Shown piece by piece: positions 32,168-44,577 of a stretch of 49,156 bases of DNA. The number at the start of each line of letters is the position of its first letter. Positions within the stretch are counted from its first letter, which is position 1. The translations under genes were made by a program, and so were the position numbers. The DNA comes from Acidimicrobiia bacterium. Its GTDB lineage: Bacteria > Actinomycetota > Acidimicrobiia > Spongiisociales > ZC4RG35. Where the stretch lies: positions 1 to 49,156 of the forward strand of contig JBKHXZ010000166.1 in the NCBI GenBank assembly GCA_046565785.1, read 5' to 3'. The notes beneath the pieces are model-generated. The model saw nothing but the letters and a program-made list of their open reading frames with translations, ran no database searches and was not told where the DNA came from.

Positions 32168-33739
32168 TCACCGGGCTGCGGCCGCGGCAGTGTCCACTCT
32201 CGGATCGGCCGCCCCGGTCCGCAACCCGTTCCCCTCGACTGTGATGAGTGAAACCGGGCCCCAGCCCGGCATACGCTCTGCCTGGATGCGGATCGTGTGT
32301 CCCCGCCGGTGGAGACCGTCGATGATCTGATCCGACATGCCGGACTCGACGTCCACCGTCGACCGAGGGGCGGACACATCGGACATGACCCAGCGCGGGT
32401 GGTGCTGCGCCGCTCCCGGCGAACGGCCGGCGGCGAAGAGCAGTGCGGCGACCTGGGCAAGCAACTGTGGTTGCTGATGCCCGCCCCTGGTTCCGAGCAC
32501 GGCACGCAAGCTCGGACCGTCGGTCCAGATGGTGGGTGCCAGGGTATGGAGCGGGCGCTTCCCGGGGGCGATCTCGTTGGGATGACCCGACCGCAGATCG
32601 AAGCCACCGCCGCGATCGTGCAGGATGAAGCCGCTGTCGCCGGCGCCGATACCCGAGCCGATACCACGGAAGTTCGACTCGATGAGGGAGACGCCCAATC
32701 CTTCTCCGTCGACGACCGCCAAGTACATGGTTCCGCCTGGACGGCGTTCGATGGGTGGCCTCAGGACCGACGAGTCGGGTTCGATGTCAGCGGCCAGCTC
32801 CATCAACCGTTCCAGCACCAAGAGTTCGTCGTTGGGGAGCGGAGCATGTCGAGGGTCGGCGACGACATCGTCTCGTTCGGCCACCACCGCCCGATAGGCC
32901 TCGATCATCGTGTGAGCCCAACGCGGGTCGCCGGGGTCGGTGGTCGGGCTCAGCTTCTCGAAGAGCTGCAGGGTGGCGAGCGTCAGATACCCCTGGCTGT
33001 TCGGGGGGATGGTCCACCCTGTCAACCCGAACACATCGGCGGCGATGGGCATGACCCACTCTGGCTGGTAGGTGGCCAGGTCGTCAGCGGTGATGAGTCC
33101 GCCGACAGCCCGGCTGATCGAACCGGCTACCTCGCCCTCATAGAAGGCGTCCGGCCCGTCCTCCCCGATCGCCTCCAGGGTCGCCGCCAAGTTGGGACGC
33201 CGTACGCGATCCCCGCGCTGGGGTGGCCTGCCGTCCACCAGCAGTTGGGCACCGGCTTCGTGTTCGGCGAGGAACTCGTGCATGCGGTGGGTTGCTCGGG
33301 TGTATTCGGTCGACGCCGGGAACCCGTCTCGTCCGAGTTCGATGGCGCGGCGGAGGAGCGATCGCATCGGTAAGCGCCCGTGGCGTGCGTGCATCGCGAA
33401 CCAGCCACGGACACAGCCCGGGATGGTGACCGAGGCAGGGTGATGTTGGGGAAGTGCCGTCAGGCCTTCCTCTCGGAGCCGGTCGGCTGACACCTGCGAG
33501 CCGGCTCCCCCCGAGGCGTTGAGTGCGGTGACTTCCGCCTGATGGTGGATGAGGGCGAAGAGGTCGCCACCGATTCCGCAGGTCTCCGGCGCCACCAATC
33601 CCTGCACGGCGTTGGCAGCGATGGCGGCATCCACCGCCGAGCCGCCTTGGGCCAGGACGTCCATCCCCGCCTGAGTGGAAAGCACGTGCGGCGTGACCAC
33701 CACCCCGTCGTATCCCTGAGCTTCGCGCATGATCTGCAT
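32168..33739 (-). CDS. ggt: Gamma-glutamyltransferase family protein
   Basis: 523 aa. 'AGGSAVDAAIAANAVQGLVAPETCGIGGDLFAL', the autoprocessing-site context 'GGTMYLAVVD' (Thr nucleophile) and 'GSGIGAGDSGFILHDRG'. Confidence 0.9.
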   Translation of the reverse strand: MQIMREAQGYDGVVVTPHVLSTQAGMDVLAQGGSAVDAAIAANAVQGLVAPETCGIGGDLFALIHHQAEVTALNASGGAGSQVSADRLREEGLTALPQHHPASVTIPGCVRGWFAMHARHGRLPMRSLLRRAIELGRDGFPASTEYTRATHRMHEFLAEHEAGAQLLVDGRPPQRGDRVRRPNLAATLEAIGEDGPDAFYEGEVAGSISRAVGGLITADDLATYQPEWVMPIAADVFGLTGWTIPPNSQGYLTLATLQLFEKLSPTTDPGDPRWAHTMIEAYRAVVAERDDVVADPRHAPLPNDELLVLERLMELAADIEPDSSVLRPPIERRPGGTMYLAVVDGEGLGVSLIESNFRGIGSGIGAGDSGFILHDRGGGFDLRSGHPNEIAPGKRPLHTLAPTIWTDGPSLRAVLGTRGGHQQPQLLAQVAALLFAAGRSPGAAQHHPRWVMSDVSAPRSTVDVESGMSDQIIDGLHRRGHTIRIQAERMPGWGPVSLITVEGNGLRTGAADPRVDTAAAAAR

Positions 33740-33819
33740 GTTGGCACGGGTGGGGTGTGCCCGTCAGAGCGTCGAACCTGCGTTCGTTTCTTGTCACACC
33801 CGTTGGGTACGTTGGGTTC

Positions 33820-34917
33820 ATGTTCGAGACAGGTCCGGTGACGGGGACGATCGACGAGTTGGAGCAGGATTTCGCCCGGTTGACGGCGGCGATGTCCCGG
33901 TTGGATGCGCTCCGGCTTGGGGTGCTCCGCCAGTTGGACGTCGCCCAGGTCGCCACCGCCGACGGTGCCCGCAGCCTGGTCGAATGGCTTTCGGGCCGTT
34001 TCGATCTGGAAGCTGACACCGCCCGAAGGCTGGTCGGTCTAGCCCGGGCAGCCGATGCCGAGATCGAGGGACTGCTCGAATCCGGTGAGGTGACCACCGA
34101 TCGGGCGGCGGCTGTGGTCGGGTTGAAGAACGCCGGTGCCGACCAGAACACCGTAGACCGGTCCTGGTCCCATGATCTTGCCGGTGTCCGTCGGATGGCT
34201 GCGGCGCACCGTCGGATCACCTCCTCCGACGAGTCGGACGCCTATGACGCCCGCTATCTGCATACCCAACCGACCTTGGACGAGTCCTCTTGGAGGTTCT
34301 GGGGACAGCTCACCGGCACCGACGGCCACATCGTGGACAAGGCGTTACGCACCGCGATCGACAGTCTCCCCGACAATCCGGACACCACCGCATCCCAAGA
34401 CCGGGCAGACGCCCTGGTAGCAGTGGCGTCCGAATGGCTGTCCGGGGAGATCGGCGGACACCAGCTGACAGCCGACATCTTCATCGACGGTTCTCTCGCC
34501 GTCGCCACCGGCGGGGAGGCAGGAGCGATGGTGGCCGGTGATGTCCGAGTAGGACCGAACACCCTGTCCGAGATCCTGTGTGCCGGCACCGTTCGCATCA
34601 ACTTTCAAGACGAACACGGTGTCGTTTCCACCTCGCCGTCGTCACGGGCGATCCCGGGAGCGGTACGGAACCGGGTACTGCATCGGGACGGGCATCGGTG
34701 TGTGATCGCCGGCTGCAACTCCCGTTCCCGGCTTCAACCCCACCATCTGATCCCTTACGCCCAGGGTGGGAGCCATCATCCGGACAACCTGGTCACCGTG
34801 TGCTGGTATCACCATCATGTCGTCATCCACCAGCAAGGCAGACGGATCGACCCCAACTCCCCGCCCCAACGGCGGACGTTCATCCGGGAGTCCGATCCCG
34901 CCCGGGCCGGACCCTGA
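33820..34917 (+). CDS. DUF222-type HNH endonuclease (actinobacterial 13E12-repeat-like family)
   Basis: The N-terminal helical region 'RLDALRLGVLRQLD...ADGARSLVEWL' is typical of DUF222. The C-terminal HNH is 'HRDGHRCVIAGC...LQPHHLIPYAQGGSHHPDNLVTVCWYHHHVVIH'. The start is taken at the ATG at 33820. Confidence 0.85.
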   Translation: MFETGPVTGTIDELEQDFARLTAAMSRLDALRLGVLRQLDVAQVATADGARSLVEWLSGRFDLEADTARRLVGLARAADAEIEGLLESGEVTTDRAAAVVGLKNAGADQNTVDRSWSHDLAGVRRMAAAHRRITSSDESDAYDARYLHTQPTLDESSWRFWGQLTGTDGHIVDKALRTAIDSLPDNPDTTASQDRADALVAVASEWLSGEIGGHQLTADIFIDGSLAVATGGEAGAMVAGDVRVGPNTLSEILCAGTVRINFQDEHGVVSTSPSSRAIPGAVRNRVLHRDGHRCVIAGCNSRSRLQPHHLIPYAQGGSHHPDNLVTVCWYHHHVVIHQQGRRIDPNSPPQRRTFIRESDPARAGP

Positions 34918-34964
34918 ACTGGCACCGTCACAACCCCCGACCACCCATCCGAAACACCGTATCC

Positions 34965-34979
34965 GGCCCCTCGCGGGCC
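34965..34979 (+). terminator. Weak GC hairpin downstream of the HNH gene (possible terminator)
   Basis: GGCCC-CTCGC-GGGCC is followed by TTCT. The stem is only 5 bp and there is no real U-tract. Confidence 0.2.
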
Positions 34980-35034
34980 TTCTCGTCGTGGGGCTGTGGT
35001 GCCGTGGGGTACTCCGCTGCCGACGGCCGGTTGA

Positions 35035-35634
35035 TCAGAGGATCCGCGCCCGATGTTGGCGCGAACGCCGCACCCTGGGAGGGCCGCTCAACATGGTGCG
35101 GGTGACTACGAAAAGCTGGGCTGTGACGAAGGCGTCGGCGAGGGCATGGTGGGGCACGCCCGGAGGGATCCCGTAACGAACCGCGCACGCCGACAAGGTC
35201 TCATGCGGATCCCGGGGTCGTCCCAATCGGCTGTCCAACTCCTTCACCAAGTCCCGGACGTCGATCATGCGCCGCTCCCACCTGCGACGTCGCCCTCCGA
35301 GGGTGGCGGCCAGGAACGAGGTCTCCACCCAGGCCGACCAGACCACCAGTGGGTGATCGCCCAGGATCCTCTCGAACTCGTACAGCGTATCCGCACGAGG
35401 GGACGCCACCGCCAGGTCTGCTGGGCGCAACTGGTGGATGCGGACGACATCGACCCCGACAGGCTTCGACGACCGCATTACCCGGTAGGTACTCCGGTCC
35501 ATTCGCACCATGCCGTCGACGATCGGGACCGTCCCGAAGGAGAGGATCACGTCGTGGCGAGGGTCGAGTCCGGTCGTTTCCAGATCCAGCGCGATCAGGG
35601 GACCGGGTCCGATCGGAGCGGGCGGAGGTGTCAT
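35035..35634 (-). CDS. DEDDh 3'-5' exonuclease (DnaQ/epsilon-like)
   Basis: Exo I 'LIALDLETTGLD' and Exo III 'HHALADAFVTAQLF'. The start is taken at the ATG at 35634, which overlaps the upstream gene's stop (ATGA). Confidence 0.8.
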   Translation of the reverse strand: MTPPPAPIGPGPLIALDLETTGLDPRHDVILSFGTVPIVDGMVRMDRSTYRVMRSSKPVGVDVVRIHQLRPADLAVASPRADTLYEFERILGDHPLVVWSAWVETSFLAATLGGRRRRWERRMIDVRDLVKELDSRLGRPRDPHETLSACAVRYGIPPGVPHHALADAFVTAQLFVVTRTMLSGPPRVRRSRQHRARIL

Positions 35635-37448
35635 CGGCCGAGGATGCGGGGTGCGAGCCGATTGGCCAGATCTGCCTGGACCTGCCGGACGATGCGAAAC
35701 GCCTGCTTCAGTGAACCCCGGTCGATCGGCCCCAGGCTGTCCGGGTCGATCAGGTTGCTCGGTGCCCGTCCAGCGGTCCATTCACTGACCTGGTTCTGCA
35801 GCCGGAGGTCCCCCAAGAACTCGAACGCCTCCTCCAGGGCATCGGCGTGGTCGGGGGAGAGAGCGCCGGCGGTGGCGGCAGCACGCAGCCGCGCTGGAGT
35901 CTCCAGCTCGAACCTGCCGGCGCGCAGGGCGTGTACCCGCGCCAGTTCGGTGATCGGAAGGATCCCGCCCGTTTTGAGGTCCAGGACGCCCTCTCGTCCA
36001 TTCACGTCGTGAGGCGCCAGGCCGCCGAGCCACCCCAACGGGGGGCGGGCCTCGAGCGCCAACCGTTCCAGTCGCTGCAGGAACCCGGGTTGGTTGCCGG
36101 CCTCCTCGGCGGCGATGGCGAACAACCTGTCGACGGCGAGGTCGCCGGTGACGTGCCGCACATCGAATGCGACCCCGGTCAGGAAAGCCGCCACCCGGTC
36201 TGGCTTTGTCATCCAGTCACGCATGCGTCGTTCCCACCACGACTCGGTCCCACGCCAGCCTTCCTCGCTGGCCATCACTTTCGACTGGCACCTCGGAATT
36301 CCCGCCGACTCGAGTCCGGTCGCCACGAACCTGGCAAGCCGAAGGAAGTACCCGTCGTGGTCTTCGGCAGAGTCGGCGTAAACCAGGGCGTGGTCCTGGT
36401 CGGTCACCAACCCCTGCTCTCTCCGGCCGGCCGAACCGAGCGCTAGCCAGGCGAAGGGAGCGGGGGCCACACCCAGAGCCTCCTGACCGAGTTCGAGCAG
36501 TCGGATGGTGAGAGCGTCGATCAGGACCGACACCACCTTCCCAGCATGCCCGGCGTCGACCCCGCCCTGGACGAGGGCGGCCACCGCCTCCGGAATCGTT
36601 CGACCCGCAGTCGCCACCTGCTCGACGTCGTTCGCCTGCTGGATCTGCGAGCGCAGTCGGGACGAGTCACGACGTTCGAGCCCGAGCAGGTCCAGATCGC
36701 TGAGCATGGCGACCACCATTCCGTGGCTGTCGACCACCGGCAGGTGGTGGACGCCCGATTCGAGCATCGTGAGTAATGCTTCGGAGACGAGCGAGGAACG
36801 GGTGATGGTGATTGCATCCGGCGTCGAGACCTGCGCGATCGGCGCCGAGACATCGGTTCGCGCGGCTACGACCCGGGTGCGGAAGTCACGGTCGGTGACG
36901 ATGCCCGGCCGGTCGGCGAATCGGACCACCGCGGCGGACGCAGATGCGGCCGTCATCCGGCGGGCGACCGATTCGATGGCCTCGTCAGGGTCGGCGAACA
37001 CCAACGGTCCCCGCGCGACGTCCTCGACGAGCGGTTGGGAGGAAGCCCGGTGAGCGGGCATCCGGCGCGAACGCAGCGTCTCGACCAGAAACCGGATACC
37101 GGTTGGGGCTCCGAGAACGTGAACTGCCACCGAACGGTCGAACAGATAACACAAAGCGTCCTCGGTGATCCGGACTGTGTACTCCGGTGAAGCTCCGGAC
37201 AGCAGGGAGGGGAACCCGAAGGCTTCACCTTCTTCCAGGCGATCGACGATTGTGTCCCCGTCGACCAACTCCGCACGTCCGCGGCGCAGGAGGTACAGGA
37301 ATTTGGAAGCCCGACCGCCCTGTTCGAGAACCACTGTCCCGGTGGGGAAGAAGTCGACGATCACCGACGAGGCGAGTCCGGCGAGGACGTGGTCGGGAAG
37401 GCCCCGGAATGGAGCGTGCGCAGCCAGGAAGCGCTCTACTTCCAGCAC
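35631..37448 (-). CDS. cNMP-binding / tandem-CBS / DUF294 nucleotidyltransferase signal-transduction protein
   Basis: 605 aa. It has an N-terminal cyclic-nucleotide-binding fold ('GEAFGFPSLL') and two CBS modules ('IVTDRDF', 'HHLPVVDSHGMVVAMLSDLDLL'). The Pol-beta-type NTase motif is 'LGSAGRREQGLVTDQDHALVY', followed by a helical DUF294_C-like tail. Confidence 0.85.
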   Translation of the reverse strand: MLEVERFLAAHAPFRGLPDHVLAGLASSVIVDFFPTGTVVLEQGGRASKFLYLLRRGRAELVDGDTIVDRLEEGEAFGFPSLLSGASPEYTVRITEDALCYLFDRSVAVHVLGAPTGIRFLVETLRSRRMPAHRASSQPLVEDVARGPLVFADPDEAIESVARRMTAASASAAVVRFADRPGIVTDRDFRTRVVAARTDVSAPIAQVSTPDAITITRSSLVSEALLTMLESGVHHLPVVDSHGMVVAMLSDLDLLGLERRDSSRLRSQIQQANDVEQVATAGRTIPEAVAALVQGGVDAGHAGKVVSVLIDALTIRLLELGQEALGVAPAPFAWLALGSAGRREQGLVTDQDHALVYADSAEDHDGYFLRLARFVATGLESAGIPRCQSKVMASEEGWRGTESWWERRMRDWMTKPDRVAAFLTGVAFDVRHVTGDLAVDRLFAIAAEEAGNQPGFLQRLERLALEARPPLGWLGGLAPHDVNGREGVLDLKTGGILPITELARVHALRAGRFELETPARLRAAATAGALSPDHADALEEAFEFLGDLRLQNQVSEWTAGRAPSNLIDPDSLGPIDRGSLKQAFRIVRQVQADLANRLAPRILGR

Positions 37449-37473
37449 GTCGGCCAGGGTATCGGCCGCGCCG

Positions 37474-38187
37474 CTACGCGTCGGTGGGTGTGTCGAGGAA
37501 CGACCGAATCCAGGAGGCCACGAGCGGGCGGTCGGGCTGGCTGCTCAGCGTGCCCAACGCCGCGTCCACCACATCGTGATCGATTACCTTCCCCCGGCGC
37601 CGTTCCATCTGTGCCCGGGCGAACGCAGGGATGAACTCGGGATGGCCCTGTATTCCGAGCACGTGATCGCCGTAGGCGAGCACGGAGATGGGACAGTGTT
37701 CGCTGGAGGCGAGGATGCGGATGCCTTCCGGCGGCTCCACGATCTGGTCGGCGTGGCTGTGCACCAGGCGGAACCGGTCGGCGGGCGGATCCATCCAGGG
37801 GGCGTGTTCGTGAACCTCGACCTCACGCACCCCGATAGCCCATCCCTGCGGCGCCCGCTCCACCTTTCCGCCCAGCGCCTGGCCGATCATCTGGTGGCCG
37901 AAGCAGATACCCACCAGCTTTCGCCGTTCCGCCACGAGATCTCGGACCAGGCGCTCGAGCTGGCGGATCCACGGCACGTCGTCGTAGACCGAATGGACCG
38001 AACCGGTGATGATCCATCCGTCGCATTCTTCGCCGGACTCCGGGAAGTGGCCCTGTGTGAGATCGTATGGGACGAGTTCCAAGTCGGGGTGTGCGGCGAG
38101 CAGTTCGGCGAACATGTCGGGATAGTCGCCGGCCAGGCCGGCCAGTTCCTCAGGCGCGTGGTCACAGATCAGCAGCCCGACCCGCAT
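37474..38187 (-). CDS. Class I glutamine amidotransferase-like protein (candidate gamma-glutamyl-amide hydrolase)
   Basis: 237 aa with the nucleophile elbow 'LVGICFGHQMI' and 'GIQGHPEF' His. It starts 1 nt after the ALDH stop. Confidence 0.8.
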   Translation of the reverse strand: MRVGLLICDHAPEELAGLAGDYPDMFAELLAAHPDLELVPYDLTQGHFPESGEECDGWIITGSVHSVYDDVPWIRQLERLVRDLVAERRKLVGICFGHQMIGQALGGKVERAPQGWAIGVREVEVHEHAPWMDPPADRFRLVHSHADQIVEPPEGIRILASSEHCPISVLAYGDHVLGIQGHPEFIPAFARAQMERRRGKVIDHDVVDAALGTLSSQPDRPLVASWIRSFLDTPTDA

Positions 38188-38188
38188 G

Positions 38189-39628
38189 TCAGCGCTCGGC
38201 GATGAACACGGACTTGTACTCGGAATAGTGGTCGAGCGCCGCCATTCCCTGTTCCCGGCCGATGCCGGACTGCTTCACCCCGCCGAATGGGGCTTCGATG
38301 TGCACCGAGGACGACGAGTTGATCGACAGCATGCCGGTCTCGACCGCCCGCGCCACCCGCAGGGCCCGGCCGATGTCTCGCGTCCACACCGAGCCGGACA
38401 GCCCGTAGATGGAATCGTTGGCCATCCTGATCGCCTCATCCTCGTCTCCGAACGCGGCCACGGCGACCACCGGCCCGAAGATCTCTTCCTGCATGATCCG
38501 CATGTCGGTTCGCACCCCCGAGAACACCGCCGGGGTGAGGAACGAGCCGGGATGGGGTAGCCGTTCCCCTCCGCACACCAGCCGGGCGCCTTCCTGTTCG
38601 CCGATCTGAAGGTACTGCTCGACCGAGTCGCGATGAGAAGCGGTGATCAGTGGCCCCATCTCGGTGGCTTCGTCCCGGGTATCTCCCACCACCAGTGTTC
38701 GAGCACGATGGGTGAAGCGTTCCAGGAACTCGTCGTGGATCGACCGTTCCACCAGCACCCGGCTGCGGGCACAGCAGTCCTGGCCGGCGTTGTCGTACAC
38801 GGCGAAGATCGAAGATTCGACGCACACGTCGAGGTCGGCGTCGGCGAAGACGATCGAGGCCGACTTGCCACCCAGTTCGAGCGACACCCGTTTGATCCCT
38901 TCGGCCGCCTGACGCATCACTCCCGCACCCACCGTGGTGGAGCCGGTGAACGAGATCTTCCGCACCAGCGGGTGGGTCACCAGCATCTCGCCCAACTCCG
39001 ATCCCTTGCCCGGTACGACCCCTAGCACCCCAGCGGGAAGCCCGGCTTCGGTTGCTAGTTCTGCCAACGCCAGGGCAGTGAGCGGGGTGACTTCCGCCGG
39101 CTTCAAGACCACGGAATTGCCCATGGCCAGGGCCGGGGCGACCTTCCAGGAGGCGATCAGCATGGGGAAGTTCCATGGGGTGATCGCTACGCACACTCCC
39201 AGCGGTTCCCTGAAAGTGAGGAGGGTGCCGGCGGCCTGCGATGGGATCGTCTCGCCTCTCACCTTGTCGACGGCTCCGGCGTAGTAATCGAAAACGGTGG
39301 CCACCGCCCCGATCTCGCCGCGGGCGGTGGCGATCGGCTTGCCGGCGTTGGAGGATTCGAGTGACGCCAACCGCTCCTGATCCCGGCGTACCAGGTCGGC
39401 GATTCGACGGAGCACGTCTCGCCGCTCGCGTACCGGGGCCCGCCGCCACACGCCCGATTCGTAGGCGCGATGTCCGGTTCGGATGGCATGGTCGACCGCC
39501 GCCGGGCCTGAACGCGCCACCCGTGCCAGGTCCTGGCCGCTCGCCGGATCGGTGATGACCGTTTCGCCGTCTGCACGATCCGGCTGATGGCTGCCGTCGA
39601 TGAATGGTCCCAGCACCACAGCGCTCAT
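38189..39628 (-). CDS. NAD(P)-dependent aldehyde dehydrogenase
   Basis: From the ATG at 39628: 'VVLKPAEVTPLTAL', catalytic Glu 'ELGGKSA', catalytic Cys 'GQDCCARSR' and 'EEIFGPV'. ATGA overlap with the SDR stop. Confidence 0.9.
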   Translation of the reverse strand: MSAVVLGPFIDGSHQPDRADGETVITDPASGQDLARVARSGPAAVDHAIRTGHRAYESGVWRRAPVRERRDVLRRIADLVRRDQERLASLESSNAGKPIATARGEIGAVATVFDYYAGAVDKVRGETIPSQAAGTLLTFREPLGVCVAITPWNFPMLIASWKVAPALAMGNSVVLKPAEVTPLTALALAELATEAGLPAGVLGVVPGKGSELGEMLVTHPLVRKISFTGSTTVGAGVMRQAAEGIKRVSLELGGKSASIVFADADLDVCVESSIFAVYDNAGQDCCARSRVLVERSIHDEFLERFTHRARTLVVGDTRDEATEMGPLITASHRDSVEQYLQIGEQEGARLVCGGERLPHPGSFLTPAVFSGVRTDMRIMQEEIFGPVVAVAAFGDEDEAIRMANDSIYGLSGSVWTRDIGRALRVARAVETGMLSINSSSSVHIEAPFGGVKQSGIGREQGMAALDHYSEYKSVFIAER

Positions 39629-40398
39629 TCGGGAGTGACGTAGGCGGCGGTGATCCCGCCGTCGACCACGAAGTCTGCACCGGTCACGAACGACGATTCG
39701 TCCGAGGCCAGCCACAATGCCGCCCGTGCCATCTCCGCGGCCTCACCGAAGCGTCCCATCGGAATGTGAACGAGTCGGCGCTGACGCTTCTCTTCGGTGT
39801 CCAAGAACTTCATGAGCAGTTCGGTGTTGAGCGGTCCGGGACACAGCGAGTTGACCCGAATGTTCTCCCGGGCGTGGATGACGGCCAACTCCCTCGTCAT
39901 CGCCAGCACCGCACCCTTGGAAGCGGTGTAGGCGATCTGCGGTGTGGCCGCCCCGAGCAGGGCGACGAATGACGCGGTGTTGATGATCGACCCTCCTCCC
40001 GCCCTGCGCAGGGCGGGGATCCCGTGCTTGCATCCCAGGAACACGCCTTTGGCGTTGATCGAGAGGGTCAGATCCCAGATGTCTTCGGCGGTACCGACAG
40101 CGTCGTCGTCGGCGGAATGCATGATCCCGGCGTTGTTGAACATCACGTCGAGCTTGCCGAAGGAGTCTTCTGCTGCTTCCACCATGGCCCGGCAGTCGGC
40201 ATCCCGGGAGACGTCGGCTTGAACCGCTATTGCGTTGCCGCCGGCCGCCTGCACCGCCTCCACCGTGGAAACGGCCGTGTCGTGATCAACGTCGACCGCC
40301 ACCACCGACGCTCCTTCGGCGGCGAACAACAGGGAAGCCTCCCGTCCGATGCCCGAACCTGCCCCGGTGATGAGGGCCACCTTGCCTGCGAGTCTCAT
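39625..40398 (-). CDS. Short-chain dehydrogenase/reductase (SDR)
   Basis: 257 aa with 'GKVALITGAGSGIGRE' (TGxxxGxG), 'NNAGI' and 'YTASKGAV' (YxxxK). Confidence 0.9.
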   Translation of the reverse strand: MRLAGKVALITGAGSGIGREASLLFAAEGASVVAVDVDHDTAVSTVEAVQAAGGNAIAVQADVSRDADCRAMVEAAEDSFGKLDVMFNNAGIMHSADDDAVGTAEDIWDLTLSINAKGVFLGCKHGIPALRRAGGGSIINTASFVALLGAATPQIAYTASKGAVLAMTRELAVIHARENIRVNSLCPGPLNTELLMKFLDTEEKRQRRLVHIPMGRFGEAAEMARAALWLASDESSFVTGADFVVDGGITAAYVTPE

Positions 40399-40406
40399 TT
40401 CTCCCC

Positions 40407-41780
40407 TCAGATCCGCTCGAAGTATCGCCAGCGTTCCCAGTCGGTGACGGCGTTGTCGTAGGCGGTCGCCTCTTCTTCGAAGAAATGCAGGTAATGCTCC
40501 TTGACCGCCTCCCCGAACGCGTCGGTCACGAAGTCGCTGGCAGCGAAGGCGTCGATGGCTTCCCGCAGGGTGTGTGGGACTCGCGGCAGGTCGGCGGCCT
40601 GGTAGACGTCGCCGGAGAACATCGCCGGTGGTTCGATCTGGTTGGCGATTCCGTCCAGACCCGCCGCCATCGCCGCCGCATAGGCCAGGTAGGGGTTGGC
40701 GTCCGCGCCCGGCACCCGGCATTCGATCCGCAGGGACGGTCCGTGGCCCACCACCCGAAAGCCGGCCGTGCGGTTGTCGTAGCTCCAGGCGATGCGCACC
40801 GGCGCCCAAGACGCGTTCTGGAACCGCTTGTACGAGTTCACCGTCGGCGCGAAGAACACCATCAACTCGGTCAGATGCGCCATCCACCCGCCGAGAAACC
40901 AGCGGAACTCGTTCGAGGCGGCCACCTCCCCGAACATCTGGTCGCCGGCGAAGACGTTTCGTTCCCCATCCCACAGCGAGAGATGCAGGTGACACGACGA
41001 GCCTGCCTCCGAGGCGTGCGGTTTGGCCATGAACGTGATGCTCACTCCCTGCAGTTCGGCGATCTCTTTCATGGCGAGCTTCATGATCGTGTGCCGGTCC
41101 GCCATGGGGAGCAGCTCGGTGTAGCGGATGTTCATCTCGTGCTGGCCCCGACCCCATTCGCCTTTCGAGTTCTCCACGGGGATGCCAGAACGGGCCAGGT
41201 GCCGCCGGACGGCGCCGTTGAAGCCCTCCTCCCGGGTTCCCTGCAGCAGGTGATAGTCCTCGATGTACCACCCGGCCGGGGTGAGGTCGTGGTAGCGGCG
41301 TTCGGCCGCCTGGCGATAGCTGTCCTCGTAGAGGAAGTATTCGAGTTCCGACGCCCCCTTCGGGGAAAAGCCGAGTTGGGCTGCCCGGTCGAGTTGCCGG
41401 CGGAGAATCGAACGCGGGGCGACCTCCACCGGATGTTCAGCGTCACCGAGGTCGCACAAGACCAGCGCGGTGCGATCGAGCCAGTCGGCGACCCGCAGCG
41501 TCGACAGGTCGGGAACCATGTGGAAGTCGCCGTACCCCAACTCCCAGTTGGCGTAGCGGTACCCGGGAACCGGCTCCATCTCCATGTCGACGGTCAAGAG
41601 GTAGTTGCAGCCGTGCGTCCCGTGGTCGTGTACCTCCTCGAGGAAGAAGGCGGCGTCGAAGCGCTTGCCATGCACGCGCCCGTAGTGGTCGGTGAAGCCG
41701 ACCACTACGGTGTCGATCACCTCGGCGGCCACCAGGTCGCTCAACTCGGCGAGACTCAACATCCCTCTCGGGTTCCCCAT
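40407..41780 (-). CDS. Glutamine synthetase-family gamma-glutamyl-amine ligase (GlnA3/GlnA4/PuuA-like)
   Basis: 457 aa from the ATG at 41780, preceded by AAGGAGG. The GS type-I-like catalytic blocks are 'KGASELEYFL', 'NSKGEWGRGQHEMN', 'AKPHASEAGSSCHLHLSLW' and 'NSYKRF'. It lacks an obvious adenylylation-loop context. Confidence 0.9.
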   Translation of the reverse strand: MGNPRGMLSLAELSDLVAAEVIDTVVVGFTDHYGRVHGKRFDAAFFLEEVHDHGTHGCNYLLTVDMEMEPVPGYRYANWELGYGDFHMVPDLSTLRVADWLDRTALVLCDLGDAEHPVEVAPRSILRRQLDRAAQLGFSPKGASELEYFLYEDSYRQAAERRYHDLTPAGWYIEDYHLLQGTREEGFNGAVRRHLARSGIPVENSKGEWGRGQHEMNIRYTELLPMADRHTIMKLAMKEIAELQGVSITFMAKPHASEAGSSCHLHLSLWDGERNVFAGDQMFGEVAASNEFRWFLGGWMAHLTELMVFFAPTVNSYKRFQNASWAPVRIAWSYDNRTAGFRVVGHGPSLRIECRVPGADANPYLAYAAAMAAGLDGIANQIEPPAMFSGDVYQAADLPRVPHTLREAIDAFAASDFVTDAFGEAVKEHYLHFFEEEATAYDNAVTDWERWRYFERI

Positions 41781-41839
41781 GCATCCTCCTTGTTCCAGGG
41801 CCTCCCGGGTCTCCCCCGGGAGGCCCTGTTCGATCGTCC

Positions 41840-43342
41840 TCAGCGCAGTTCCTGCTCCGCCTCTCGGACGAGGGCGTGTTCTTCCTCCGGGGACTGGGCG
41901 ACCAGACGGTGCCGGCTGAATCCCCAGTAGTAGCCGAACATGATCAGCACGAAGATGCCGGTGCCGATGACTCCCGGACGGTTCTCGGCGATGGCGAGGG
42001 TGGCGACCAGTGTGATCAGCGAGATCACCGTCCCCACCACTGCGCCAGGAACGCCGAGCGGACTCTTGTAGGGCCGATCCAGGTCTGGGCGGGTCCACTT
42101 CAACTGGACGTAGGTGATCATCACCAGCGAGTACGAGATGACCGCTCCGAAGACCGCCATCGTCAGAAGCGATGCTCCGACGATGCCCTCGCCGAAGAAC
42201 TGGATCACGACGGCGACGCCGAACCCGACGACCGCCCCCAGGATGAGGGCCCGGTGTGGGGTCTTGCGGCTGGAAGTCACCGAGATGCCGCGGGGGATGT
42301 AGCCCGAGCGAGACGCAGCGAACAACACCCGACCGTAGGCGTAGATGATCGAATGGAACGAGGCGATCAGCCCGGTGAGAGCGATGAAGGTCAGCACCTG
42401 GGTGGCAAAGCCCGCGCCGAATACCGCCCGGAATCCTGCTTCCAGCGGTGCACCGGACAGACCGATCTCGAGGGCGCCGCCGGCCACACCGGTGTTGAGC
42501 ACCAGGGTCAGCACCGACAGGATCAGCAGGGTGACGATGCCCCAGATCAGTGCCTTGGGCATGTCCTTCACCACGTCGTGGGACTCTTCGGCTGCCAGGG
42601 GTAGTTGTTCGATCGCCAGGTAGAACCAGATGGCGAACGGGAGGGCGGCAAAGATTCCGAACCAACCCTTGGGGAGGAACTCGGAAGCTCCGGCCCGTGC
42701 GGTGTCTGCGGGGATGTTGGTGAGCAGCGCCGGATCGAAGGCCCCTGAGACGAGTGCTCCGATGTAGAACACCGCCAGGATCGCCATCGACGCCAGCGTC
42801 ACCACCAACGCCACCTTGAACGTGAGTTCAGTTCCCCACACGTTGATCCCCACGAAGATGCCGTAGAAGATCAGCCACCACACGATGTTGGCGCCTGCAT
42901 CCCCGAAGATCCCGGAGAGATCGAGCAGCGAGTTGGCGTATCCGGAGATGCCCACGACGATCACCGCCGGGGTGATCACGTACTCCACCATGTCGGTGAC
43001 GCTGTTGAAGTAGGCGAGACCCGGTCCGTAGGCGTTGCGGGTGAAGCCGTAGAAGCCACCCGCATGGGGGAGTGCGGTCGACATCTCGGCGATCGACAAC
43101 ACCATGCACACGAACATGATCGCGATGAACACGGTGGCGATCAGTAGCCCGCCGAAGCCGCCCGCATCCAGTCCGAAGTTCCAGCCGAAGAAGTCGCCCG
43201 AAATGACCGCTCCCACGCCGAGCGCCCACAACAGCACCCAGCCGGCGCTTCTCTGCAACTGACGTTGGTCCAGGTACGACTTGTCGACGTTCTCGTACGT
43301 CGCTCCCTTGACTCTGAGTTTCCCGTCACTGCCTTGAGTCAT
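41840..43342 (-). CDS. APC-superfamily amine permease, ethanolamine-permease-like
   Basis: The N-terminal block 'SYLDQRQLQRSAGWVLLWALGVGAVISGDFFGWNFGL' and 'SIAEMSTALPHAGGFYGF' resemble the ethanolamine permease (Eat) family, and there are ~12 TM segments. The ATG at 43342 has a GAGAGGA SD; a GTG at 43360 is an in-frame alternative. Confidence 0.85.
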   Translation of the reverse strand: MTQGSDGKLRVKGATYENVDKSYLDQRQLQRSAGWVLLWALGVGAVISGDFFGWNFGLDAGGFGGLLIATVFIAIMFVCMVLSIAEMSTALPHAGGFYGFTRNAYGPGLAYFNSVTDMVEYVITPAVIVVGISGYANSLLDLSGIFGDAGANIVWWLIFYGIFVGINVWGTELTFKVALVVTLASMAILAVFYIGALVSGAFDPALLTNIPADTARAGASEFLPKGWFGIFAALPFAIWFYLAIEQLPLAAEESHDVVKDMPKALIWGIVTLLILSVLTLVLNTGVAGGALEIGLSGAPLEAGFRAVFGAGFATQVLTFIALTGLIASFHSIIYAYGRVLFAASRSGYIPRGISVTSSRKTPHRALILGAVVGFGVAVVIQFFGEGIVGASLLTMAVFGAVISYSLVMITYVQLKWTRPDLDRPYKSPLGVPGAVVGTVISLITLVATLAIAENRPGVIGTGIFVLIMFGYYWGFSRHRLVAQSPEEEHALVREAEQELR

Positions 43343-43668
43343 GTTGTCCTCTCTTGTCACGATTGGTGGCGCGTGCGCGCCATGACGAGAGCGACGGGAT
43401 CACGGGGGATCGCGCGACGGGCGGCGGTCGGCGAGGTCGTGCAACCTCGTGCCCGCTGTTCCGTGGCGCATGGCTTCTCCTCCGCCTGGGGTGGTACGTG
43501 CGGTTGGAACGGGTCCATCGGGATCCCTCCGGCAGCCCACCCGCTCACCCATCCGAACGGCGGATGCGACTGTACGGCCCAGATCGCGGTCGCGTCGCCT
43601 TCGGGACCGGGAAATTTCCGGCGAATCCCATCACCCCCGCGGTGCGCCGGTACCGGTAGCTTGGCCTC

Positions 43669-44577
43669 GTGCGTCGCTATCGCGGATCGATCTCCGACAA
43701 TGCCCGCTGGGATGGCTTCGAATTCCGGGCGGACGACATCGTCATCTGTACTCCGGCGAAGTGTGGGACGACGTGGATGCAGACGATGGTGGCGACCCTG
43801 GTGTTTTCCTCGGTCGAGCTGCCCGCCCCCGTCGGCCACCTGTCACCTTGGCTCGACATGGTCACCCGGCCGGTGGACGAAGTCCACCAGAGGCTGGCCG
43901 TACAGACCCATCGCCGATTCATCAAGACCCACACCCCTTTCGACGGCCTGCCCTACGACGAGCAGGTGACCTACATCGCCGTGCTGCGTCATCCGCTCGA
44001 TGTGGCGTTGTCGATTCGGGATCACCGGCGGACCATCGACCGTGACCGCATTCGTGACCTGGTCGCCGGGGTGGATCCGGACATCATCACGACATGGGTG
44101 GACATCGACCAGCCCGAGGACGAGGCCCACTACCTGCGATGGTGGGTCGACTTCGACGAGGACGTGTGGAGCCAGGGGGTCTCCGGGTTGGGGGAGTTCG
44201 CCCGGCACGCCCGCACCTACTGGGAGGCACGGCACCTCCCCAACGTGACGCTCTTCCACTACGACGACCTGGTGGCCGATCTTCACGCGCAGATGACCCG
44301 CCTGGCAGATGTCCTCGGGGTCGAGGTCGATCCACCGCGGATGAGCGAGTTCGTGGAGGCGGCGAGGTTCGACGCGATGCGCTCTCGTGCGGCTCTCACC
44401 GTTCCGGACTCCGACATCACCGCGTGGAGGGTTCCGGAGACCTTTTTCAGTACCGGGGGCCGCCGGGCATGGGGGACGCTGCTCTCGGATGCGGACGTCG
44501 CCCGCTTCCGGGTTCGCCTGCGTGAGTTGGCTGGCAACGACCTCGCCGGCTGGTTGGACCGCGAATGCGAACCCTGA
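43669..44577 (+). CDS. PAPS-dependent sulfotransferase, cytosolic SULT (Sulfotransfer_1)-like
   Basis: 302 aa. The 5'-PSB loop 'TPAKCGTTWMQ', the catalytic-His context 'FIKTHTPF' and the 3'-PB motif 'LRHPLDVALS' parallel PKSGTTW / KTHLP / RNPKDVxVS of eukaryotic SULTs. GTG start. Confidence 0.8.
   Translation: MRRYRGSISDNARWDGFEFRADDIVICTPAKCGTTWMQTMVATLVFSSVELPAPVGHLSPWLDMVTRPVDEVHQRLAVQTHRRFIKTHTPFDGLPYDEQVTYIAVLRHPLDVALSIRDHRRTIDRDRIRDLVAGVDPDIITTWVDIDQPEDEAHYLRWWVDFDEDVWSQGVSGLGEFARHARTYWEARHLPNVTLFHYDDLVADLHAQMTRLADVLGVEVDPPRMSEFVEAARFDAMRSRAALTVPDSDITAWRVPETFFSTGGRRAWGTLLSDADVARFRVRLRELAGNDLAGWLDRECEP

Follow-up and report, generated by a model that had tools for sequence, protein, structure and literature searches.

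The stretch of DNA analysed here, referred to as the window, comprises positions 1 to 49,156 (49,156 nt) of contig JBKHXZ010000166.1 from an Acidimicrobiia bacterium, a metagenome-assembled genome (MAG) that totals 2.75 Mb, is split into 313 contigs and is 93% complete. Its minus strand carries a pair of adjacent genes, namely those for a sensor nucleotidyltransferase (NTase) of the COG2905/DUF294 family with 605 residues (35631..37448) and for a DnaQ-fold 3'-5' exonuclease with 199 residues (35035..35634), which directly follow a predicted operon led by an ethanolamine-type permease. The pair belongs to a widespread module that combines a sensor-gated DUF294 NTase with a DnaQ-like exonuclease (COG2905 plus DEDD exonuclease), and its genomic contexts, taken together with the structural affinities of the two proteins, tentatively suggest that it regulates the permease-led operon beside it. 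That this gene pair is widespread and biochemically undescribed, as stated in an earlier reading of the window (hereinafter the original prediction), agrees with both the homologue listings and the literature.

The NTase gene is supported by its open reading frame and translation, which contains four Pfam domains, and its GTG start codon occupies a position backed by the aligned N-termini of the homologues. The N-terminal segment is a cyclic-nucleotide-binding (CNB)-like domain with the cNMP_binding fold (aa 1-128; 37065..37448, minus strand), recovered by Foldseek and by PF00027, which matches residues 33-106 with 40.2 bits. It is followed by a CBS pair (aa 139-256; 36681..37034, minus strand); PF00571 matches residues 205-256 with 52.7 bits, and two CBS modules are recognized because PDB proteins with CBS pairs align over the whole of residues 139-256. 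The C-terminal half consists of the DUF294 Pol-beta-type NTase core (aa 284-417; 36198..36599, minus strand) and the DUF294_C domain, a KNTase_C/HEPN-like "substrate-binding" module (aa 455-596; 35661..36086, minus strand), for both of which the Pfam models exceed their gathering scores (PF03445, 140.4 bits with a cut-off of 21, and PF10335, 135.5 bits with a cut-off of 22.5). The architecture of a CNB domain, two CBS modules and a Pol-beta NTase in a 605-aa protein, as originally predicted, is thus borne out by the Pfam matches, the alignment to the PDB CBS pairs and the motif at residues 338-357.

This motif, GSAGRREQGLVTDQDHALVY (nt 36378-36437), holds the catalytic signature G338-S339-x10-D350-Q-D352. 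Across 73 homologues no variation was seen at G338, S339, R342, E344, Q351, D352, H353 and D429, and D350 shows at least 90% conservation; given this conservation the Pol-beta site, comprising the GS...DxD motif and D429, is intact. D429, which lies just C-terminal of the DUF294 core, presumably provides the third carboxylate of the active site.

The AlphaFold2 (AF2) model of the NTase (pLDDT 89.2, pTM 0.74) finds its best Foldseek match in the PDB in the adenylylation domain of Escherichia coli GlnE (3k7d, E 5.6e-8, 371 columns), followed by Legionella DrrA (6yx5, E 2e-7, TM 0.66 on the target) and the N-terminal domain of GlnE (1v4a, E 2.7e-7). With the NTase core and DUF294_C taken together, the superposition with GlnE and DrrA spans 358-394 columns, and CNB and CBS domains rank after these among the matches. 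As the top matches of the model are GlnE and DrrA, its catalytic half looks like the protein AMPylators and not like enzymes of the cGAS or poly(A)-polymerase type, and the assignment to the GlnE/GlnD type in the original prediction fits these three best matches. Sequence identity to GlnE and DrrA is 11-17%, and a PDB sequence search with the whole NTase returned CNB and CBS relatives only, GlnE and DrrA being reached by the fold search. The possibility that the NTase is GlnE proper is ruled out by its single NTase domain and by the lack of a match to any GlnE or GlnD model in Pfam and NCBIfam.

In Foldseek searches the CNB-like domain recovers the CNB domains of PKG/PKA and of mycobacterial Pat. 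When aligned to the cyclic-nucleotide sites of PfPKG, the canonical phosphate-binding cassette was not found in it: the Glu of FGE is replaced by Phe, and the Arg of PRSA by Pro88, a near-invariant residue whose conservation in the family is at least 90%. The CNB identity is therefore real at the level of the fold, which upholds this part of the original prediction, and the domain is devoid of the canonical cAMP/cGMP contacts; since these are missing, control of the NTase by cyclic nucleotides, the sensing role that the original prediction attached to the domain, is doubtful.

Genes with adenylate/guanylate-cyclase domains were seen near the pair in several genomes. In the sister genome G007 the array reads permease, glutamine synthetase (GS)-like, dehydrogenase, aldehyde dehydrogenase, amidotransferase, DUF294, exonuclease and cyclase, the last being a 925-aa protein with a cyclase domain and a STAND/NB-ARC NTPase (L040:12459-15236 (+)) whose gene overlaps the exonuclease stop by 4 nt. 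L086 likewise has a cyclase-domain gene directly after that for the exonuclease, in L107 and L063 one lies a few genes off, and in Microvirga a cyclase gene lies upstream of an acs-ActP-DUF294-exonuclease array. No cyclase gene is present in the 49,156 nt of the window, and the linkage is taken as a hint only.

The second gene of the pair is identified as a DnaQ-type exonuclease by a match to PF00929 (RNase_T, 40.9 bits), by its conserved residues and by Foldseek. Its AF2 model (pLDDT 91) is a plain DnaQ fold that aligns with a TM score of 0.82 to Pol III epsilon (2ido) and to a streptococcal DnaQ domain (8h2f); its fold neighbours also include an oligoribonuclease (2gbz) and the CBASS exonuclease Cap18 (7t2s). 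In 38 family members D17, E19, E104, H162 and D167 are invariant. The D-x-E of Exo I and the H-x4-D of Exo III are kept, and the acidic residue of Exo II is the invariant Glu104, which replaces the usual Asp in all 38 members. The resulting D-E-E-H-D site is intact, and exonuclease activity is probably retained despite this conservative change. The stop codon of the NTase gene (TGA, 35631-35633) overlaps the start codon of the exonuclease gene (ATG, 35632-35634) in a shared ATGA of 4 nt at 35631-35634, which the original prediction had pointed out and which the reading frames and the PF00929 match corroborate. The same 4-nt overlap is found in 25 of 39 pairs, and the two genes are translationally coupled. 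In PADLOC no defence system matched the NTase, and the exonuclease matched a generic DEDDh model only; an anti-phage role for the pair, CBASS-like or otherwise, was dropped as no PADLOC system was matched.

The operon upstream of the pair, also on the minus strand, begins with an APC-family amine permease of the ethanolamine type (41840..43342), which is followed by a GS-like, predicted gamma-glutamyl-amine ligase resembling GlnA4 (40407..41780; PF00120, 321 bits), a short-chain dehydrogenase/reductase (SDR; 39625..40398; PF13561 and PF00106), an aldehyde dehydrogenase (ALDH; 38189..39628; PF00171, 590 bits) and, as the last catabolic gene, a class-I glutamine amidotransferase (GATase)-like predicted gamma-glutamyl-amide hydrolase (37474..38187; PF00117). 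The permease matches the TIGR00908 ethanolamine permease model with 368.8 bits, below its cut-off of 381.75, and the ligase scores under all NCBIfam cut-offs, including those of GlnA, type III GS and GGputSyn, its closest PDB relatives being 11zs and 5dm3. A gene is thus present for each predicted step of a GlnA4-type pathway, i.e. the GS-like ligase, dehydrogenase, ALDH, amide hydrolase and permease, although we infer the role of the GATase from passages of PMC6529630 that give this step to a different family.

The NTase start is separated from the GATase stop by a spacer of 25 nt (37449..37473), so the pair begins, as originally noted, 25 nt after the last operon gene on the same strand. Neither a sigma-70-like promoter nor an intrinsic terminator was found on the minus strand between 34700 and 43800, which is weak evidence as the consensus used is of the E. 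coli type. A Rfam scan of 33000-44500 gave no element, with one sub-threshold match to a small RNA only, and no transcription-factor gene lies beside the operon in the window. Elsewhere in the source genome (contigs C34, C12 and C272), the other GS-family genes are one strong GS (417 bits) and one GSII-like gene. No GlnE was seen in this 93% complete MAG, and the only further signal of the GlnD/GlnE type is a weak GlnD-like NTase on C272.

A comparison of gene neighbourhoods in relatives, which the original prediction had called for, shows that rearrangements have not separated the pair from the operon and that it is found again next to other modules of amine permeases and GS-like genes; the lack of synteny that would have spoken against the original prediction is thus not observed. 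Among 61 related genomes, with GS-like orthologues defined by at least 64% identity, a full-length DUF294 gene is found in nine and a GS-like orthologue in 20, and the GS-like operon is present in all but one of the nine genomes with DUF294 (8/9; Fisher p = 3e-4, with no correction for phylogeny). Gene order is as in the window in G003 and G007. In G006 the permease is preceded by the pair, all on one strand, and in G034, from another genus, the DUF294 gene is directly upstream of the permease with no exonuclease detected. In two further MAGs (L044, L045) the NTase and exonuclease genes are followed by a divergent RpiR-type regulator gene and then by the permease operon. The permease is 78-96% identical across all orthologous loci with DUF294, and is co-directional in seven out of seven of them. 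In this Acidimicrobiia lineage the physical link between the pair and the ethanolamine-type permease/gamma-glutamylation operon has outlasted several rearrangements. The regulator of L044 and L045, of the RpiR/MurR type with HTH_6 and SIS domains (L044:12396-13259 (-) and L045:3745-4608 (-)), stands between the exonuclease and the permease and is divergent from the latter.

The converse comparison is provided by the 12 of the 20 relatives that possess the GS-like operon without DUF294. Loci were fetched from 12 relatives with a GS-like gene in which DUF294 was either not found or not near the operon, and in these the core of the GS-like and SDR genes is kept, often together with the ALDH and GATase genes, but there is no co-directional permease of the ethanolamine type. 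A permease with 59-61% identity stands in divergent orientation in two of the 12, and one has, judging from a reading of the sequence by eye, an ABC transporter instead.

A broader view was obtained from at least 442 confirmed DUF294 relatives in a collection of species-representative genomes, of which 80 actinobacterial loci were subjected to a home-made gene caller (a GC3-GC2 suffix score that reproduced the genes of the window), clustering and tree construction. A GS-like gene lies within eight genes in 19 of 39 exonuclease-paired loci and in one of 44 unpaired loci (Fisher p ~1e-6, uncorrected for phylogeny), and an APC permease is likewise located within this distance in 19 of the 39 paired loci. 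The exonuclease-paired genes form the deeper branches of the tree, and the associations of the paired loci are spread over four to five separate clades at least, which differ in gene order and include that of the Acidimicrobiia. In L047 the GS-like and permease genes are divergent, with an SDR gene downstream, beside the pair, and in L098 and L112 the pair is convergent with an ethanolamine-type permease and a GS-like gene. In a 15-member clade the pair is followed by a USP-like gene and then by an APC permease, whose best NCBIfam match is the trimethylamine-N-oxide permease model, below its cut-off. Beyond the permease are a TIGR03105-type GS, which exceeds the cut-off with 612 bits, another GS-like gene, and mgs-like genes for a class-II GATase and a GXGXG protein; upstream are GcvT-like and formiminotransferase genes (Pfam), as well as genes read by eye only as formate-tetrahydrofolate ligase and 5-formyltetrahydrofolate cyclo-ligase. 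Such a combination of genes would fit a methylamine/N-methylglutamate cluster.

In such methylamine-type loci a further exonuclease of this family, a paralogue that stands alone, was observed about 6-8 kb upstream of the pair (L054:3277-3936, L088:3721-4371, L090:4333-4995, and the first gene of L115), where it adjoins the genes read as 5-formyltetrahydrofolate cyclo-ligase and GcvT-like. Another part of the tree is a derived and well-supported clade of 36 DUF294 genes without the exonuclease (L049-L119, e.g. L084, L093 and L113), which lie between cysM/cysO/moeB/mec/selD/PfkB genes on one side and SDR, adenosine-deaminase and DUF885 genes on the other, this setting having been read by eye with only PfkB checked by Pfam.

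Outside the Actinomycetota, ten annotated plasmid or chromid contexts of the pair were inspected, in six of which it directly follows ActP or a DUF4212-SSS symporter. The order DUF4212-SSS-DUF294 occurs in Paracoccus, Skermanella and Shinella, and the annotation shows a long exonuclease gene downstream in Shinella and, behind a response-regulator gene, in Paracoccus. The order DUF485-ActP-DUF294-exonuclease, in some cases preceded by acs, is found in Methylocella, Microvirga and Rhodovulum. The remaining contexts are GntR-DUF294-exonuclease-DMT in Vibrio penaeicida, kdgR-DUF294-exonuclease in V. pelagius, lacI-exonuclease-DUF294-glycosidases in Hymenobacter, and one without an adjacent transporter in Cytobacillus.

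Published data also place the family beside transporters. The genes PA3232-PA3235, an ActP cluster, are co-regulated under MxtR/ErdR (10.1101/2022.08.25.505149). In Shewanella amazonensis and Pseudomonas stutzeri a COG2905-module gene shows cofitness with the adjacent DUF4212/SSS symporter, and the guess of the authors was that the symporter depends on it for expression (bioRxiv 10.1101/072470). In Paenibacillus and Brevibacillus amtB shares its operon with dnaQ and a DUF294 gene, and glnK is not listed for two of the three genomes with this arrangement (PMC3412718, Table 1 footnote d). None of these three published contexts, i.e. the MxtR/ErdR cluster, the DUF4212/SSS symporters and the amtB operons, includes a GS-like gene.

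Several observations pertain to the flanks of the pair and operon in the window. A gamma-glutamyltranspeptidase gene (32168-33739 (-); PF01019, 396 bits) lies 1.3 kb past the exonuclease, and gamma-glutamyl compounds formed within the amine pathway are possible substrates of its product. The only gene between the two encodes an HNH endonuclease (33757-34917 (+); weak, sub-threshold DUF222 match), is convergent with the exonuclease gene and forms a singleton cluster with no counterpart in the 80 related loci, which is consistent with a mobile insertion. On the other side a Sulfotransfer_1 protein (43669-44577 (+), 120 bits) is encoded divergently from the permease across a spacer of 326 nt.

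The reading that we favour, to which we would give a probability of roughly 40%, is that the pair regulates the permease-led ethanolamine operon by reversible protein nucleotidylylation, with the exonuclease as a possible eraser and a target on the side of the permease. A regulatory role towards such an operon is suggested because a transporter-led operon is the setting common to the different phyla and because, within this lineage, every locus with the co-directional permease has the pair as well. The mechanism that we infer in all its steps would begin with the reading of a nucleotide or metabolite signal by the CNB-like and CBS domains. The NTase would then nucleotidylylate a protein in a reversible manner, this being the most likely chemistry as its catalytic half has the fold of GlnE and DrrA. 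The exonuclease might act as the eraser by hydrolysing the protein-O-P-5'-nucleoside phosphodiester with release of the 5'-NMP, which is chemically plausible because the geometry of this bond is the same as in the removal of a 3'-terminal nucleotide. The target would more likely be the permease or a permease-proximal step than the GS-like ligase specifically.

A number of points weigh against this reading. About half of the paired actinobacterial loci with adequate flanks have no permease or GS-like gene nearby (e.g. L051, L053, L059, L063 and L102), three of the ten plasmid contexts have no adjacent transporter, and the association counts are inflated by shared ancestry. Co-transcription of the pair with the operon is presumed from just the spacer of 25 nt and from the lack of consensus signals. 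No protein target of the NTase was identified, DEDDh exonucleases are not known to cleave a bond between a protein and a nucleotide, and the literature searched on DUF294, COG2905 and PA3233 holds no biochemical study of any family member. A bolder version of the favoured reading, in which the two proteins are a writer and an eraser that directly gate APC, SSS and Amt permeases, or the first enzyme of the pathway, according to the nucleotide status of the cell, is on the unlikely side. If true, it would amount to a post-translational switch of uptake that is independent of PII and GlnD, and to the first DEDD exonuclease functioning as a de-nucleotidylylase.

Of the alternatives, the one closest to the original prediction holds that the NTase is an analogue of GlnE with the operon's GS-like ligase as the protein it nucleotidylylates, and that the exonuclease removes the adduct. 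It draws on the GlnE-like fold, on the GS-like genes near 19 of 39 paired loci and on the genome itself, in which, at 93% completeness, a weak GlnD-like match was the sole candidate and no GlnE was seen. The GS-like protein also has a tyrosine, Tyr393, 15 residues after the GLDGI motif, which would correspond in position to the adenylylated Tyr397 of E. coli GlnA; as an equivalent tyrosine also occurs in GS forms that are not adenylylated, Tyr393 was judged non-diagnostic as an adenylylation site. However, the core of GS-like and SDR genes persists without DUF294 in 12 of 20 relatives, the pair tracks the co-directional permease, and in other phyla it is common beside operons that have no GS-like gene, such as those with ActP/SSS/acs, amtB or glycan genes. 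The GS-like ligase is for these reasons probably not the specific target, and we regard this alternative as distinctly unlikely.

The NTase could instead make a nucleotide or short-oligonucleotide messenger that the exonuclease degrades, the signal gating the transporter or the operon. Pol-beta NTases include signal synthases, the canonical substrates of the exonuclease are 3' nucleotides of nucleic acids, and its fold neighbours include 2gbz and Cap18 (7t2s); a cyclase gene is, moreover, coupled to the exonuclease gene in L040 and adjacent to it in L086. Yet the top structural matches of the NTase are protein AMPylators and not cGAS, CD-NTase or OAS, the NTase has no PADLOC match and no candidate receptor was identified, so that a messenger of this kind seems improbable. 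A similarly low probability attaches to control at the level of RNA, in which the NTase would tail a 3' end, be it of the operon mRNA or of a small RNA, and the exonuclease would trim it, thereby setting expression of the transporter operon. The action of DnaQ/RNase T-type enzymes on nucleic-acid 3' ends, together with the frequent location of the pair at the 3' end of a transporter operon, including in the window, speaks for such control; against it are the lack of an RNA-binding domain in the searches, a fold nearest to GlnE and DrrA with a KNTase_C-type C-terminal domain, and the lack of a Rfam element in 33000-44500. That the neighbourhood is due to chance and the function of the pair is unrelated to the amine operon would accord with the diverse contexts of the family, the housekeeping cysO/cysM region of the 36-gene clade without the exonuclease and the possibly mobile HNH gene next door, but is very unlikely in view of an adjacency that is kept across at least three gene orders within the closest clade and is met again in clades apart from it, and of the co-occurrence at the level of genomes.

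The DUF294/exonuclease pair is among the more widespread bacterial gene pairs without known biochemistry. The module itself is known, and its context in an amine operon is new to the literature searched. An independent class of contexts, that of amine permeases with gamma-glutamylation pathways, is contributed by the window together with its relatives, and the Acidimicrobiia relatives supply natural comparisons with and without the pair; together these point to the transporter-led operon, and not to one class of enzyme, as that which the pair serves. Were the idea of a writer and an eraser to hold true, nutrient uptake would prove to be controlled post-translationally in a way not described before.

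With respect to known systems, the NTase core and helical C-terminal domain superpose on those of GlnE (3k7d, 1v4a) and DrrA/SidM (6yx5) with E values of 5.6e-8 to 2.7e-7, and the GS...DxD motif is shared. Compared to GlnE, the window NTase has one NTase domain instead of two, and an N-terminal CNB-like domain and a CBS pair that are not found in GlnE. The exonuclease shares the fold, Exo I and Exo III with DnaQ epsilon, PolC proofreading domains and RNase T, and differs from them in the Glu for Asp of Exo II and in being a stand-alone protein of 199 aa that is coupled to an NTase and not to a polymerase. The adjoining operon is comparable in its predicted steps (ligase, dehydrogenase, ALDH and amide hydrolase) to the GlnA4-type ethanolamine-utilisation cluster SCO1610-SCO1615 of Streptomyces coelicolor, as described in the passages of PMC6529630 drawn on here, which also report an ethanolamine-type permease in other Streptomyces. 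The predicted hydrolase is a class-I GATase in the window, whereas these passages give SCO1615, of the formylglutamate-amidohydrolase family, in S. coelicolor, and they do not mention the DUF294/exonuclease pair. The amtB-DUF294-dnaQ operons of Paenibacillus and Brevibacillus, likened here by gene content, have the same pair on a nitrogen-source transporter, although the latter is of the Amt family and not, as in the window, of the APC family.

The proteobacterial clusters of COG2905 with a DnaQ-like exonuclease, namely those of Methylocella, Microvirga and Rhodovulum as well as PA3233/PA3232, have the same four-domain architecture and the same small exonuclease immediately downstream, with 25-35% identity between the window NTase and the proteobacterial COG2905 proteins. 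They adjoin an SSS carboxylate symporter or acs, whereas the window pair adjoins an APC amine permease and a gamma-glutamylation pathway; in both cases the pair is positioned at the end of, or beside, a transporter-led uptake operon.

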